Assembly (NCBI GenBank): GCA_965153355.1
Contig: OZ231126.1
Location: 4,402,001 to 4,466,000, forward strand
DNA length: 64,000 nucleotides
Origin: Flaccisagitta enflata
Taxonomy: Eukaryota
Direction: 5' to 3'
The notes under the pieces are model-generated. The model was not told where the DNA came from. It made no database searches and saw only the letters and a list, made by a program, of their open reading frames with translations. Position numbers and translations under genes: made by a program. Positions 646-56,386 of the stretch are shown here, piece after piece; positions within the stretch are counted from its first letter, which is position 1; each line of letters opens with the position of its first letter.

Positions 646-766
646 AATTTTGTTGCTGTCTGGAGTGGAAGACGCTTACTTCATTTCTCATGGCCCGACT
701 TTGGATTTGGGATTTCTGTGCAAAGCCACGCTCAACGCACTCAGAGAGACATTCGCTCATTTTCAG
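646..766 (+). CDS. Exon 2 of RPS2/uS5-like gene
   Basis: Long pyrimidine tract and TTCAG acceptor; joins exon 1 in phase to give R-ILLLSGVEDAYFISHGPTLDLGFLCKATLNALRETFAHFQ, alignable to RPS2 [40 protein letters not shown]. Donor CAG|GTGAGC, phase 0. Confidence 0.85.
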
Positions 767-1116
767 GTGAGCCACACTCAATGCACTCAGAGAGACATTC
801 GCTCATTTTCAGGTAAGCCACGCTCAACGCACTCAGAGAGACATCCGCTCATTTTCAGGGGAGCCACGTTCAACGCACTTAGAGAGACATTCGCTCATTT
901 TCAGGGGAGCCACGCTCAACGCACTTAGAGAGACATTCGCTCATTTTCAGGTGAGCCACGCTCAACGCACTTAGAGAGACATTCGCTCATTTTCAGGTGA
1001 GCCACGCTCAACGCACTCAGAGAGACATTCGCTCATTTTCAGGTGAGCCACGCTCAACGCACTCAGAGAGACATACGCTCATTTTCAGGTGAGCCACGCT
1101 CAACGCACTCAGAGAG
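724..1116 (+). repeat. 46-bp minisatellite (about 8.5 copies) made of the exon 2 3' end plus its donor
   Basis: Unit AGCCACGCTCAACGCACTCAGAGAGACATTCGCTCATTTTCAGGTG, near-identical copies; the first copy is coding. Confidence 0.95.
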
Positions 1117-1406
1117 CCATGTTAGACTGCTAGTAAATCATCTTGTCATCAATTATGACCATATATGAAAATGATTACTATCCAATGGGCTCCTTTAAAT
1201 GATTTTGTTCATTTTTCGGTGATGTTTATGGAGAAGCGCTTACTCTCAGGCATTAATCAAACGCATTTCAAATTATCCTCTCCGACCTTCGTTCCACGAT
1301 CTCCATTCATGTTTATCTCTGTTCTTTTCAAGGAGGAAGTGTTCCGCATCACTAGAGCTTCTTTCTTCTCCGATCTCCATTTATATGTATCTCTATTCTT
1401 TTCAAG

Positions 1407-1518
1407 GAGGAAGTGTTTCGTATCACTCAAGCGTCTCAGCGCCACTTAGCTCCGGAAATGGAAGAGATGCTTCCTTGGGCAAGATCTGATTTCATCCACG
1501 AAGCCGAAATGAAAAATG
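1407..1518 (+). CDS. Exon 3 of RPS2-like gene (non-ribosomal extension)
   Basis: TTCTTTTCAAG| acceptor and G|GTGAGT donor; 112 nt, phase 0 to 1, consistent with both neighbours; reads EEVFRITQASQRHLAPEMEEMLPWARSDFIHEAEMKN. Confidence 0.72.
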
Positions 1519-1734
1519 GTGAGTTTATCGGCGTATCCAATCATGCAATCATTTAAATCATCCAATCAACCAAATTTAAGAACATGTCTCTGTCCCTTCT
1601 CATCGTTGGTTCTGTTTCTTTCCGTCTTTCTAAACGACTACGCCTTTGTTTCCCGGCTGTTTTAAATATATCTTTGTTTCTTCCTTTCTTTCTGTCTTTC
1701 TTTTACTCTCTCGCTGTCTTTCTTTCATTCTCTC

Positions 1735-1970
1735 TCCGTCTCTGTCTCTCTCTCTCTGTCTCTCTCTGTCTCTCTCTCTCTGTCTCTCTCTGTCTCTCTC
1801 TCTCTGTCTCTCTCTTTCTCTCTCTCTCTCTCTCTCTCTCTCTCTCTCTCTCTCTCTCTCTCTCTCTCTCTCTCTCTCTCTCTCTCTCTCTCTCACACAC
1901 ACACACACACACACACACACACACACACACACACACACACACACACACACACACACACACACACACACAG
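1735..1970. repeat. Compound (CT)n-(CA)n microsatellite ending in the exon 4 acceptor
   Basis: Direct reading; ...ACACACAG| precedes an open exon. Confidence 0.95.
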
Positions 1971-53836: not shown

Positions 53837-54547
53837 TTCCATATTTGGCCGCTGGTATCTCAAATGCACAAAGGAGTCAAGTCAACTCAGTTTGCGCATT
53901 TGTTGTGTTCAAGCGCAATCTCGTGTTCTTGTTCATGTTCTAGTTCATGTTCTAGTTCATGTTCTTGTTTCAAATTCAAGTTTGTGTTCAGAATCAAGTT
54001 CAAGCTGAGAACGAAGCTCAAGTGTTGGTCACGGTCACAACAGCAACTACAACAACAACAACAACAACAACAACAACAACAACAACAACAACAACAACAA
54101 CAACAACAACAACAACAACAACAGCAACAAAAACAACAACAACAACAACAACAACAACAACAACAACAACAACAACAACAACAACAACAACGTAAAAAAA
54201 AACAAACATGAAATCGTCAACATCACCGAGAAAATCGACAAAAAAAGCAACAGAAACAACAAAAGCCTTTTTTTCATCGATTTTGCCATTTATAGCATCC
54301 AAATCGGGAATAAAATCATTTCCATCGGTATCACCATAAAGACGATGATGTTGAAGGCGACGTCGATGAAAATGATGATGATGATTATGATGATGACGCA
54401 AATAATGACATCATCAGCGAAGCTATTATTATCACGCCTTGACATGATGATACGACATTGAGGATGATGATGACTACAACGACTACAACGACGACAACGA
54501 CGACGACGACGATGTTGATCAAGTTGATCCCAACAACAACGACGATA

Positions 54548-54764
54548 ATGCATCATATGAGCCAAAGGGCATTTTTTTATTCTTCTTCTTCTTCTTCCTC
54601 CCGTGTAAGCATTTTTTTCATGTTCCTCGCGACATTTTTGTTTGTAATGACCTCATCTTCTTCTGATGCGCATAGCACAAATAATAACAACAACGGTTCT
54701 GGGCAAGATTCTTCCTCGTCGGCGATGAGCCTCTCCTCAAACACTCATCAGGGCTTACAAAAAG
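54548..54764 (+). CDS. Candidate first coding exon with signal peptide
   Basis: MHHMSQRAFFYSSSSSSSRVSIFFMFLATFLFVMTSSSSDA-HSTNNNNNGSGQDSSSSAMSLSSNTHQGLQK; hydrophobic core then S-D-A; phase-1 donor AAG|GTTCGA is weak; start codon uncertain. Confidence 0.5.
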
Positions 54765-55189
54765 GTTCGAGAGAGCTTTTATAAATCGGTCCCGGGAATT
54801 GGTTTTCATTAGTTGTGGCCTTGATTGAAGACTGAATTGATTGGTTGACTTTGTTGACATGGTTGACTTGGTTGACTTGGTTGACTTCTTCGCCTTGGAT
54901 GGTTGGTGAAATTGGGTTTACCAGAAAGAGTTGTCCTGACTGATTGGATAGTGGTTTTTTTTTATGGGTTGGTGGAGAAGGTTGACAGTGATTGGTTTGA
55001 TTGACTGGCTTTATTGGTTGATTGGTTGAAGAGATTGCCTTAGGGGAAAATGATTGGCCCAATTGGTTGGTAGAAGATGTTACCATTGTTGAAAATGGTT
55101 AGCTTGATTGACTGACTTGATTGATTGGTTGATTGGTTGAAAAGGTTGCTTTTGTTGATATTGGTTGATTTGATTGACATACTGTTGAA

Positions 55190-56380
55190 ATGATTGTTTT
55201 CCTGGGAAGTTAACTGGTTGATTTGTTTTCCTGAGCAGTGTACTGATTGATTTGATTGTTTACCTTGGAAGTATACTGGTTGATTTGATTACCCCTATTT
55301 CCTGAGAAGTATACTGTTTGATTTGATTGTTTACCTTAAACGTATACACTGGTTGATTTGATTATTTCCTGAGAAGTATACTGGTTGATTTGATTGTTTA
55401 CCTTGGAAGTATACTGGTTGATTTGATTGTTTTCCTGAGAAGTATACTGGTTGATTTGATTGTTTACCTTGGAAGTATACTGGTTGATTTGATTGTTTAC
55501 CTTGGAAGTATACTGGTTGATTTGATTGTTTTCCTGAAAAGTATACTGGTTGATTTGTTTTCCTGAGTAGTGTACTGATTGATTTGATTGTTCACCTTGG
55601 AAGTATACTGGTTGATTTGATTGTTTACCTTGGAAGTATACTGGTTGATTTGATTACCCCTATTTCCTGAGAAGTATACTGTTTGATTTGATTGTTTACC
55701 TTGTACGTATACACTGGTTGATTTGATTATTTCCTGAAAAGTATACTGGTTGATTTGATTGTTTACCTTGGAAATATGCTGGTTGATTTGATTGTTCTCC
55801 TGAGAAGTATACTGGTTGATTTGATTGTTTACCTTGGAAGTATACTGGTTGATTTGATTGTTTTCCTGAAAAGTATACTGGTTGATTTGTTTTCCTGAGT
55901 AGTGTACTGATTGATTTGATTGTTTACCTTGGAAGTATACTGGTTGATTTGATTGTTTACCTTGGAAGTATACTGGTTGATTTGATTACCCCTATTTCCT
56001 GAGAAGTATACTGTTTGATTTGATTGTTTACCTTGTACGTATACTGGTTGATTTGATTATTTCCTGAAAAGTTTACTGGTTGATTTGATTGTTTACCTTG
56101 GAAGTATGCTGGTTGATTTGATTGTTCTCCTGAGAAGTATACTGGTTGATTTGATTGTTTACCTTGGAAGTTTGCTGGTTGATTTGATTATTTCCTGAGA
56201 AGTATACTGGTTGATTTGATTGTTTACCTTGGAAGTATGATGGTTGATTTGATTATTTCCTGAGAAGTATACTGGTTGATTTGATTGTTTACCGTGGAAG
56301 TATACTGGTTGATTTGATTGTTTTCCTGAGAAGTATACTGGTTGATTTGATTGTTTACCTTGGAAGTATACTGGTTTTTG
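55190..56380. repeat. 33-bp minisatellite with higher-order structure
   Basis: Unit GAAGTATACTGGTTGATTTGATTGTTTACCTTG and variant ...TTTTCCTGA. Confidence 0.95.
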
Positions 56381-56386
56381 ATTCAG

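Follow-up and report, generated by a model that had tools for sequence, protein, structure and literature searches.

Results

Exons of the uS5-like gene

The window, by which we mean the whole 64,000-nucleotide stretch of Flaccisagitta enflata DNA that was analysed, carries on its plus strand a divergent uS5/RPS2-like paralogue, recognized by homology to proteins of relatives. Relatives P0001 and P0002 carry both Ribosomal_S5 domains, N-terminal and C-terminal (PF00333 and PF03719). The window holds the C-terminal part only of the uS5 protein, 100% and 97.6% identical to relatives P0001/P0002, and its direct Pfam match was weak (E 0.02); a Pfam run on single exons likewise gave weak matches only. 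This gene hosts the junction arrays described below, and its exons are as follows.

3 to 154, plus strand: first exon seen in the window; donor AAG/GTCGGT; identical to P0001 and P0003 over 51 aa (tblastn, 100%)
646 to 766, plus strand: exon 2 (…ATLNALRETFAHFQ); donor CAG/GTGAGC; 97.6% identity to P0001 over 41 aa; Ribosomal_S5_C match weak, E 0.02
1407 to 1518, plus strand: exon 3 (EEVFRITQASQRHLAPEMEEML…); donor ATG/GTGAGT; from translation and homology
1971 to 2175, plus strand: exon 4 (VNRRLLEAQIHRDLGL…QQKFVPS); first donor AAG/GTTAGC, phase 2; 60% identity to P0001-P0003
4479 to 4684, plus strand: exon 5 region with putative acceptor; donor ATGA/GTAAGA matches the phase of exon 6
5551 to 6011, plus strand: last coding exon (exon 6; …LSLRPRP…DSPWRSLAPAFK…); 54-55% identity to P0001-P0003; TRF

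Relatives P0001-P0003 contain ...RETFAHFQ/EEVFRITQAS... and ...KN(A/V)NRR.LEAQIHRDLGL...QQKFVP, corresponding to window positions 644-766, 1407-1472, and 1970-2170, and these proteins support the predicted donor at 766/767 and the predicted acceptors at 1406/1407 and 1970/1971. We placed the probable end of exon 4 near 2175 because the homology ends at KFVP and the relatives diverge beyond it. The sole find of a near-length search with exon 4 was P0128, a third relative's fragment ending at KFVPS, short of the exon 4/5 junction; a Protein Atlas result for the same exon (ankyrin-like plus unnamed bacterial clusters, 0.90-0.92) represented low recognition and was taken as chance. Within the coding sequence of exon 6, TRF identified an in-frame 21-bp (7-aa) array at 5740-5890 plus (TCC)10. 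A scan of metagenome contigs with the exon at 3-155 found no orthologue of the uS5-like paralogue; its 11 loci (L001-L011), with 59-78% identity over residues 11-47, were read instead as ordinary RPS2 genes from other organisms. For the organism itself a polyA RNA run (X24) is available, and DNA runs X1 and X2 were found as well.

Three junctions of the uS5-like gene are duplicated in tandem

Two donors (at 766 and 2175) and one acceptor (at 1407) of this gene have been duplicated together with the sequence on either side.

724 to 1120, plus strand: 46-bp array (TRF 8.6 copies, 95% matches); unit is the last 43 nt of exon 2 plus 3 nt of intron
1297 to 1427, plus strand: 74-bp pair; core is the intron end (36 nt), AG, and the first 21 nt of exon 3
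2119 to 2594, plus strand: 84-bp array; unit is the last 57 nt of exon 4 plus 27 nt of intron; ~4.7 copies, then 1-2 degenerate ones

In the 46- and 84-bp arrays, an exon end and the adjoining intron start were duplicated and, after the first duplication, amplified further; in the 74-bp pair, it was an intron end and the exon start. The terminal copy is an actual exon edge in all three, as had been claimed for the exon 2 donor, exon 3 acceptor, and exon 4 donor, and these junctions are placed by the relatives' proteins. The exon copy is the source, given that peptide conserved in relatives can still be read from the copies in the introns. Which sites are likely to be used was judged from reading frame and homology only; by this measure the frame is kept only by the exon-contiguous sites and by donor 2 of exon 4.

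The first copy of the 46-bp array is the edge of exon 2, and the other copies follow in register. GT is kept at 6 of its 8 donor positions; among the seven decoys, four are identical to the authentic CAG/GTGAGC, one is GTAAGC, and two have no GT. Six full intronic copies match ATLNALRETFAHFQ by tblastn, four exactly and two with one substitution. All five decoy donors that still have GT would lead to premature stops, and the sole in-frame decoy position has lost its GT.

The 74-bp pair is absent from the TRF list at a score of at least 50 and was shown by direct comparison, with 51/57 core bases identical and 58/74 over the period. Its upstream copy translates to EEVFRITRAS (tblastn) and places a decoy acceptor at 1332/1333 against the authentic one at 1406/1407; use of the decoy would lead to a premature stop.

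The copies of the 84-bp array are also in register (TRF span 2119-2518, 4.7 copies, 87% matches), and tblastn added degenerate copies at 2455-2505 and 2538-2594. Its first donor matches the consensus at 7/9 positions, and those of copies 2-5 at 8-9/9. Donors 3-5 would lead to premature stops, whereas donor 2 (+84 nt) stays in frame, so that this decoy in the second copy could add 28 residues.

Repeats also run up to acceptors

A different arrangement was seen upstream of exon 2, exon 4, and the exon 5 region, where repeats end next to an acceptor AG.

380 to 643, plus strand: (TCTT)n plus 30-bp pyrimidine array (TRF); block ends at 643 and abuts the exon 2 acceptor (AG 644-645)
1706 to 1969, plus strand: (CT)n(CA)n microsatellites (TRF); block ends at 1969 and reaches the exon 4 acceptor (acacag/TG)
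3397 to 4475, plus strand: 22-bp pyrimidine-rich AG-free array, unit TTCATTGCCCCTCCTTCCCTTC; TRF 49.7 copies, 81%; ends 1 nt before AG 4477-4478
2865 to 3390, no strand assigned: MITE (miniature inverted-repeat transposable element); terminal inverted repeats 60 nt long, 20-bp minisatellite inside; supported by inverted repeats I2 and I3 and by terminal-repeat copies

The exon 2 acceptor is preceded by an AG-free zone of 219 nt (91% pyrimidine) and the exon 4 acceptor by one of 388 nt. The zone before 4479 covers 1087 nt, the longest AG gap in the window, and 4479 follows the first AG after it. The 22-bp array had been said to run into an acceptor there, which we could not uphold: joined to exons 4 and 6, acceptor 4479 gives in-frame stops, and among the 12 AGs tested only the acceptors at 4563, 4569, 4575, and 4605 keep the frame. 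Repeat blocks end 0-4 nt before the AG at 2/5 acceptors of the working model (plus the putative 4479), compared with 0.85% of random positions. These pyrimidine-rich, AG-free arrays are probably expanded polypyrimidine tracts whose growth was halted by the constrained exon. The (TG)m(T)n sequence of CFTR intron 8 is a polymorphic repeat tract at an acceptor; there too, a simple repeat abuts the AG and contributes to the polypyrimidine region. By comparison, the tracts in the uS5-like gene are much longer, at 219-388 nt upstream of verified acceptors and 1087 nt upstream of the putative one, and one of them is a 22-bp minisatellite.

The MITE sits inside the left end of the 22-bp array, with a 22-bp unit at 2836-2863 to its left. 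A literature text search with the MITE terminal repeat found no paper.

Candidate junctions outside the uS5-like gene

The original prediction extended the pattern to three different genes. The arrays themselves were confirmed (46, 84, 22, 55, and 33 bp by TRF, the 74-bp pair as above), and one gene, the uS5-like one, has homology-verified exons; the remaining loci do not.

16901 to 16982, plus strand: putative first exon (MATFKIYLSFVTVAAIATFSCLPHLVR); donor GAG/GTGAGT; ATG-started open frame of 27 codons into GT
16959 to 18565, plus strand: 55-bp array (TRF 28.7 copies, 82%); 279-bp higher-order period
21676 to 22038 (also given as 21693-22038), plus strand: second, degenerate 55-bp-family block, 3.1 kb downstream; no ATG-exon copy before it
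55179 to 56383, no strand assigned: 33-bp array (TRF 36.5 copies, 80%); higher-order periods 332/365 bp
56387 to 56448, plus strand: candidate exon predicted from the sequence, GENEEGQSPLCGAIDCKTIEG
56359 to 56429, minus strand: candidate exon, ttgttttgcag/TCAATGG…CTTCCAAG/gtaaac; overlaps the last 33-bp unit

The exon proposed at 16901 as a signal exon has as its sole support the ATG-started open frame into GT. The final 24 nt of this exon belong to the array, its translation had no match in Pfam, and the 55-bp unit, if the exon is real, would be these 24 nt plus 31 nt of intron. GT is kept at 17/22 anchored donor positions of the 55-bp array, and 22/23 pattern matches fall within 16959-18565. 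The 33-bp array, described as running into an acceptor at 56387, is real, and its strand is ambiguous: AG/GTAAAC occurs 16 times on the minus strand, and a plus-strand acceptor (AG 56385-56386) and a minus-strand donor-type junction would fit equally well. The units are unrelated to each other and locus-specific, as claimed, with the exceptions of the second 55-bp-family block and the separate 22-bp unit beside the MITE. Rfam and tRNA scans found no matches. A dispersed-repeat ORF had 147 protein matches, and among the 120 listed all were from metagenome sources. Marine metagenome and metatranscriptome runs with 0.06-0.15 of the sampled words were not taken as evidence of habitat or expression, because microsatellite words could account for these shares.

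Junction-spanning arrays against a neutral expectation

Tandem repeats make up 33.5% of the window, 54% of positions 1-6011, and 23-34% of its other parts. The introns of the uS5-like gene are 53% tandem repeat, 23% MITE, and 24% unique sequence, the latter amounting to 153-288 nt each. Junction-derived copies account for ~770 of 4836 intronic nt (from coordinates), leaving ~1790 of 2564 repeat nt in the same introns that are not junction-derived (by subtraction).

We considered whether the exon borders are true seeds of the arrays, as would be the case if a junction-targeted process were at work, for example if damage coupled to splicing or transcription, or a polymerase that pauses where splice sites are bound, led to local slippage. 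Arrays lie at 3/10 junctions of one gene, and a uniform window-wide model using the 10 known junctions only expects 0.44 spanning arrays (P(≥3) = 0.010). The donor motif AGGTRAG is also enriched, occurring in the consensus unit of 4/47 arrays compared with 0.46 expected from shuffled units; only 2 of its 28 plus-strand occurrences in the window lie outside tandem repeats, which leaves some room for a bias towards junctions. Against this, a local model of random duplication plus purifying selection, with ancestral introns of ~150-290 nt and the repeat density of the hot region taken as given, already expects 1.4/6 arrays to span a junction, compared with the 3 observed (P(≥3) = 0.14, one gene). 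A target-size expectation of this kind is the sum over arrays of (unit length − 1) × junctions / tolerated sequence, using repeat-collapsed intron lengths. Junctions are not the source of most arrays in these introns, and tandem repeats are dense in the rest of the window as well.

The positions of the unit boundaries also argue against a splicing-coupled origin. They are off the cleavage sites, at a distance of 3-31 nt on the intron side and 21-57 nt on the exon side, and they are scattered. The intron and exon portions are 3 and 43 nt for the 46-bp unit, 27 and 57 nt for the 84-bp unit, and 31 and 24 nt for the 55-bp unit, whose exon is putative; the exon shares are 43/46, 57/84, 24/55 (putative exon), and 21/74. 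We consider a junction-targeted process unlikely, and the general or splicing-coupled mechanism of the original prediction is not supported, in view of these boundaries, of the local expectation, and of the finding that just one of the three genes has verified exons.

Discussion

We conclude that sequence at exon edges was duplicated outward into introns, leaving decoy splice sites, and that this holds for one gene. The arrays are probably junction-spanning (mirage-type) minisatellites in a genome with extremely frequent tandem duplication, produced by random duplication and selection. Duplications would arise at random places by ordinary replication slippage or unequal exchange, with which higher-order periods (279 and 332/365 bp) are consistent, and selection would then purge those that alter the mRNA. 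A junction-spanning duplication would be silent while the exon-contiguous site is used (among donors the one furthest upstream, among acceptors the one furthest downstream) and would therefore survive like any intronic array. With ancestral introns of only ~150-290 nt, target size alone would put one-quarter to one-third of the tolerated duplications of 46-84 bp across a junction. Introns would grow as a result and accumulate rows of decoy sites, most of which, with few exceptions, would give premature stops if used. Apparent signs of the selection filter are the frame-breaking decoys at exons 2 and 3 and the period of the array inside coding exon 6, which is 21 bp or seven codons, compared with 46, 74, 84, and 55 bp (putative junction) for the junction arrays. 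The original prediction had offered as its own alternative that exon-overlapping duplications are simply those that selection tolerates, and this is the best fit.

A bolder reading, which we think unlikely, is that junction-spanning duplication here belongs to a genome-wide process biased to junctions beyond target size, as a main driver of intron expansion and change of exon ends; the first donor of the 84-bp array would have decayed to GTTAGC, and splicing would perhaps already use the second copy, which is in frame (GTAAGC, +84 nt).

The arrays might instead be retained for function, as banks of U1 or PTB sites that tune splicing, suppress premature polyadenylation, or divert transcripts in a regulated way to nonsense-mediated decay. 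The decoy donors equal or better the first one (8-9/9 compared with 7/9 in the 84-bp array), AG-free pyrimidine arrays of 219-1087 nt precede acceptors (1087 nt at the putative one), and (TCTT)n and (CT)n are similar to PTB-binding motifs. We nonetheless give this explanation little chance: the copies share 93-100% identity with the exon copy, for which recent origin or homogenisation suffices without selection, and GT has already been lost at 2/8 donor positions of the 46-bp array and 5/22 of the 55-bp array. It is similarly doubtful that the pattern is in part an artefact of arrays mis-assembled or of exons mis-called by seeking splice motifs beside arrays, as the open frame at 16901, the stops from 4479, and the strand ambiguity at the 33-bp array might suggest, since relatives' proteins pin down, by homology, the three junctions in the uS5-like gene and the array copies differ by point changes in consistent register, like real arrays.

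Such a structure had been described before, in amphioxus mirages and human junction-spanning minisatellites, and no special mechanism is needed here. Canestro et al. 2002 is reportedly the founding mirage paper. Mirages are minisatellite-like tandem duplications of exon-intron boundaries, and they are described in Adh3, the globins BflGb6 and BflGb9, troponin C, and PGBD5, with retinol dehydrogenase and presenilin cited as further loci (PMC3087553, PMC3902484). The hosts of the published mirages that we found are all cephalochordates. Splicing is reported to be undisturbed (PMC3087553), and splicing and length instability were shown by RT-PCR and haplotypes (PMC3087553, PMC3902484). The arrays here share many features with them: the unit consists of an exon part, an intron part, and a splice signal; 5' and 3' boundaries are both hit; unit sizes are similar (10-160 bp in amphioxus, 46-84 bp here), with copies 81-100% identical; several mirages are possible per gene; and intron evolution has been suggested to draw on them as raw material. 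Unlike the mirages so described, the arrays here have many non-junction arrays around them, in introns very rich in repeats, and are known from sequence alone.

Human minisatellites whose first monomer lies across an exon-intron boundary are described for F7 IVS7 (37 bp, 5-9 copies), the interferon-inducible 6-16, CBS IVS13, LMNB2, and PDGF (PMC1557585). Of the identical donors in F7, splicing uses just the one furthest upstream, and in a patient with a mutated authentic donor the pseudo-site of the second monomer took over (PMC1557585). As in that account, an authentic donor is followed here by a row of identical or near-identical pseudo-donors, and the patient's case resembles the 84-bp array, in which a weak first donor (GTTAGC) is followed by a second one in frame. 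The human cases, as listed there, are single donor-type arrays in separate genes, whereas here there are three within 1.5 kb of one gene, one of them at an acceptor. The Rogers model has introns gained by tandem duplication of an AGGT-containing exon segment, for example in potato RdRp (PMC4974935). The likeness to Rogers-type gain, so described, is that tandem duplication supplies splice signals and that splicing can restore the original mRNA; the difference is that existing introns were lengthened here, with units holding 3-31 nt of intron past the donor or 36 nt before the acceptor. Rather than an exon-internal duplication making a new intron, we found that the exon text resumes in a separate exon further downstream, in agreement with the relatives' proteins. 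A literature search for a genome-wide test of junction-spanning arrays gave single-gene descriptions only, which is not proof that none exists.

The claim of a new mechanism fails, and the pattern is the expected product of random tandem duplication and purifying selection acting on short introns in a very repeat-rich genome. Arrays of near-identical splice sites amount to a natural experiment in how the spliceosome selects one of several equal candidates, and the three within 1.5 kb offer seven decoy donor positions (five with GT) and one decoy acceptor, plus four decoy donors closer to consensus than the first. Junction arrays have also been proposed as a source from which introns and exon sequence arise anew; if the second donor of the 84-bp array is used, a duplicated exon edge would have been turned into 28 new protein residues.

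Tandem repeats and the host gene

The window is eukaryotic DNA in which tandem repeats are extraordinarily abundant (173 rows in the TRF listing). After merging, they account for 33.5% of the 64 kb and for 54% of positions 1-6011. A divergent uS5/RPS2-like gene is represented by its 3' part at positions 3-6011 (+ strand). Using exon 4 as the query, we retrieved two longer proteins, P0001 and P0002, each with both ribosomal S5 domains and each from a transcript-sized contig (1626 and 2435 nt, respectively); P0003, P0005, and P0128 are additional relatives. At least three related versions occur in transcript-sized contigs from metagenome-derived collections. 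The C-terminal tail of the host paralogue is long and of low complexity, and relatives P0002 and P0003 carry a long Gly/Pro/His-rich N-terminal extension. We aligned the relatives' proteins to the window by tblastn and built a working gene model whose predicted junctions are based on homology and reading frame.

Protein matches and working gene model of the uS5-like gene
3-155 (+): tblastn match, 100% identity to relatives
644-766 (+): tblastn match, 97.6% identity to relatives
1407-1472 (+): tblastn match to relatives' proteins
1970-2170 (+): tblastn match, 60% identity to relatives
5559-5726 (+): tblastn match, 54-55% identity to relatives
ends 154 (+): first exon seen
646-766 (+): exon 2
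1407-1518 (+): exon 3
1971-2175 (+): exon 4, phase 2
end at 4684 (+): exon 5
5551-6011 (+): exon 6

At the exon 2/3 join (marked by a slash), the relatives read ...RETFAHFQ/EEVFRITQAS...; the window frame stops after ...FAHFQ at 766, with GTGAGC next, and the EEVFRITQAS frame picks up at 1407, directly after AG. The five introns total 4836 nt (2564 tandem repeat, 1105 MITE, and 1167 unique), and each contains 153-288 nt of unique sequence.

Members of a MITE family, bounded by 60-nt terminal inverted repeats, lie at 2865-3390 and 4826-5404, and the family's terminal repeat is found also at 30863-30905. The first copy, whose terminal repeats are 98% complementary, is located within the 22-bp array that ends at 4475. 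The family encloses a 20-21-bp minisatellite, and by eye similar arrays are seen at 14617-14823, 30185-30373, 30666-30826, 31015-31321, and 45113-45514. A dispersed repeat at 29621-29893 (- strand) has an ORF-like frame (…RGHATLHLAV…SVGPSV…) matching 147 proteins at E <= 0.001, at least 120 of them from metagenome sources (ENA or JGI), without names; similar ORFs were seen by eye near 19300, 23900, 43300, 44700, and 60200. Another 22-bp array (37 copies, 11522-12326), flanked on either side by 166-bp repeats (region 11077-12974), has a unit, TTCAAGGTATGCCATCATGGAC, containing the donor-like CAAG/GTATGC, with no evident exon ahead. Finally, a direct duplication (61719-62640 and 63080-64000, ~1.36 kb apart, 96.9% over 923 nt) carries (TC)n/(TCTC)n, (TTCA)n, and (AG)n tracts in both copies.

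Three arrays span junctions of the uS5-like gene

The original prediction held that splice junctions seed tandem arrays across three genes. Three of its six items are solid, spanning junctions placed by homology, and all three belong to one gene; three such arrays within 1.5 kb of a single gene are notable. The statement that the array units are mutually unrelated was borne out when the units were compared.

Junction-spanning arrays
724-1120 (+): 46-bp array at the exon 2 donor, 8.6 copies by TRF, 95% matches
exon 3 acceptor (+): 74-bp pair, core present twice, 51/57 bases identical
2119-2518 (+): 84-bp array at the exon 4 donor, 4.7 copies by TRF, 87% matches

The 46-bp unit takes in the final 43 nt of exon 2 and the GTG that follows, and GT is kept at six of the eight in-register donor positions. 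Its six full intronic copies match ATLNALRETFAHFQ by tblastn, four exactly and two with one substitution. The core of the 74-bp pair, which is absent from the TRF list at score >= 50, comprises the 36-nt intron end with its AG and the opening 21 nt of exon 3; its upstream copy encodes EEVFRITRAS (tblastn). The 84-bp unit joins the final 57 nt of exon 4 to 27 nt of intron, and one or two degenerate copies continue past the array to about 2594. The peptides encoded by the exon-derived parts are conserved among the relatives; the exon copy is therefore ancestral and the intronic copies are derived. By eye, AGCCA opens the 46-bp array within the exon (724-728) and recurs at 1115-1119, at the border between the final partial copy and unique intron sequence (AGCCATGTTAG); this motif could be the microhomology that seeded the first slippage.

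Decoy splice sites

Use of any of the exon 2 decoy donors that keep GT would lead to a premature stop (5/5), and the sole decoy position in frame, at +138 nt, no longer has GT. A premature stop also follows from use of the decoy acceptor at 1333. The exon-contiguous donor of exon 4, GTTAGC, agrees with the consensus at seven of nine positions, compared with 8-9/9 for the GTAAGC or GTAAGT donors in copies 2 to 5 of the 84-bp array. Its T at +3 abolishes an in-frame TAA present in the other copies, and donor 2 (+84 nt, 28 codons) is therefore in frame; donors 3-5 do not keep frame. Within coding exon 6, the array next to (TCC)10 repeats every 21 bp (7 codons); the periods of the junction arrays are 46, 74, 84, and 55 bp. 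Both exon 6 periods (5646-5890) are multiples of three; most junction array periods are not. A selection filter is visible in the exon 6 period, in the stops that the exon 2 decoy donors and the decoy acceptor would give, and in the GT lost from the in-frame exon 2 decoy.

Repeats abutting acceptors

A (TCTT)n tract stops at 643, directly ahead of the AG at 644-645, and a (CT)n(CA)n tract stops at 1969 and provides acacag, the acceptor itself. AG-free zones of 219 and 388 nt, 80-91% pyrimidine, precede these acceptors. Two of the five working-model acceptors have a repeat block ending 0-4 nt ahead of their AG versus 0.85% of random positions, and this is not chance. In the simplest reading, low-complexity polypyrimidine tracts would lengthen by slippage, would be halted at the exon by the constraint on it, and would last only if AG-free. 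The sense strand of positions 1-6000 is strongly pyrimidine-rich (GC skew -0.21 to -0.48, AT skew -0.19 to -0.34), which fits such expansion. Very long AG-free arrays ahead of acceptors are a notable trait.

Three weaker candidates

The remaining items of the original prediction are weaker.

16959-18565 (+): 55-bp array, 28.7 copies (TRF)

This array is real, and GT is kept at 17 of its 22 anchored donor positions, but the candidate "signal exon" ahead of it (16901-16982) is a bare ATG-started open frame whose final 24 nt are array sequence. Hydrophobic peptides easily arise from translating T-rich DNA. No homologue was found for this candidate exon, whose peptide is too short for a homology search, and a second block of the 55-bp family (21693-22038) has no such ATG exon ahead of it.

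The 22-bp array said to run into an acceptor at 4479 does stop beside an AG: it ends at 4475, and the AG at 4477-4478 is the first after 1087 nt, the longest AG-free stretch of the window. However, joining acceptor 4479 to exons 4 and 6 yields in-frame TGA and TAG stops, which are located at 4516-4539. Four of the 12 AGs tested as exon 5 acceptors (4563, 4569, 4575, and 4605) are open to the exon 6 stop; the first three are in-frame CAG acceptors spaced 6 nt apart. Either the productive exon 5 acceptor lies ~85-125 nt past the array or this allele gives a truncated product.

At its end (56383), the 33-bp array adjoins an AG (56385-56386), as predicted, but a donor on the minus strand fits as well as an acceptor at 56387. 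On that strand AG/GTAAAC occurs 16 times within the array, and a candidate exon at 56359-56429 (ttgttttgcag/TCAATGG...CTTCCAAG/gtaaac) overlaps the last unit. The array could thus be a fourth donor-type junction array, belonging to a putative minus-strand gene.

Chance expectation

Because half the sequence is array, a position inside or adjacent to one is unremarkable. As a null model, we let tandem duplications arise anywhere and survive unless the mRNA is altered; a junction-spanning duplication is silent while the exon-contiguous site is used, and the odds are therefore set by target size. With 10 junctions, a 46-84 bp unit spans a junction with 24-36% chance. Applied to the gene's six non-exonic, non-MITE arrays, the local model expects 1.4 and three were observed (P(>=3) = 0.14); a cruder model, uniform across the window and counting these 10 junctions alone, expects 0.44 (P = 0.010), and with 40 junctions in the window it gives P = 0.26. 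Under the local neutral model, the junction-array count is compatible with chance, and there may be a modest bias toward junctions in a sample of one gene. Of 47 arrays (period >= 12), 4 carry the strong donor motif AGGTRAG in their consensus unit, representing three families, where shuffled units predict 0.46, and only 2 of the motif's 28 + strand occurrences in the window fall outside tandem repeats. Array units are truly enriched in genuine donor sequence, as expected of junction-derived arrays.

Mechanism and known systems

A splicing-coupled mechanism should place breakpoints at cleavage sites, and they were found elsewhere: 3, 27, or 31 nt beyond the donor or 36 nt ahead of the acceptor on the intron side, with scattered exon shares of the unit (43/46, 57/84, 24/55, and 21/74 nt). 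Higher-order periods are present in the 55-bp (279 bp), 33-bp (332/365 bp), and 22-bp (44/66 bp) arrays and are a sign of ordinary minisatellite turnover, through slippage or unequal exchange, as are certain distal copies that equal the exon copy in sequence while nearer copies differ. The original interpretation is supported in part, as a description; a new or splicing-coupled mechanism is not supported.

PMC1557585 describes human minisatellites whose first monomer lies across an exon-intron boundary in F7, 6-16, CBS, LMNB2, and PDGF. Solely the most upstream of the identical F7 donors is used, and in a patient with the authentic donor mutated, the second monomer's pseudo-site is used instead (PMC1557585). 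The uS5-like gene has a comparable arrangement, with a weak exon 4 donor, GTTAGC, and an in-frame donor 2 in place of the mutated donor and second monomer; by analogy, a shift of the exon 4 donor to the second copy is possible.

In amphioxus, tandem duplications of exon-intron boundaries ("mirages") are known from Adh3, globin genes, troponin C, and PGBD5, the globin units being ~150-160 bp with 3 and 6 copies in two haplotypes and 81-100% identity (PMC3087553, PMC3902484). These reports state that mirages leave splicing undisturbed, suggest them as an origin of new introns, and describe their mechanism as unclear and the mirages themselves as possibly general in cephalochordates (PMC3087553, PMC3902484). 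Our literature search found single-gene descriptions only and no genome-wide enrichment test of such arrays, an absence that is not proof. The arrays of the uS5-like gene are of the junction-spanning minisatellite type already described in amphioxus and human.
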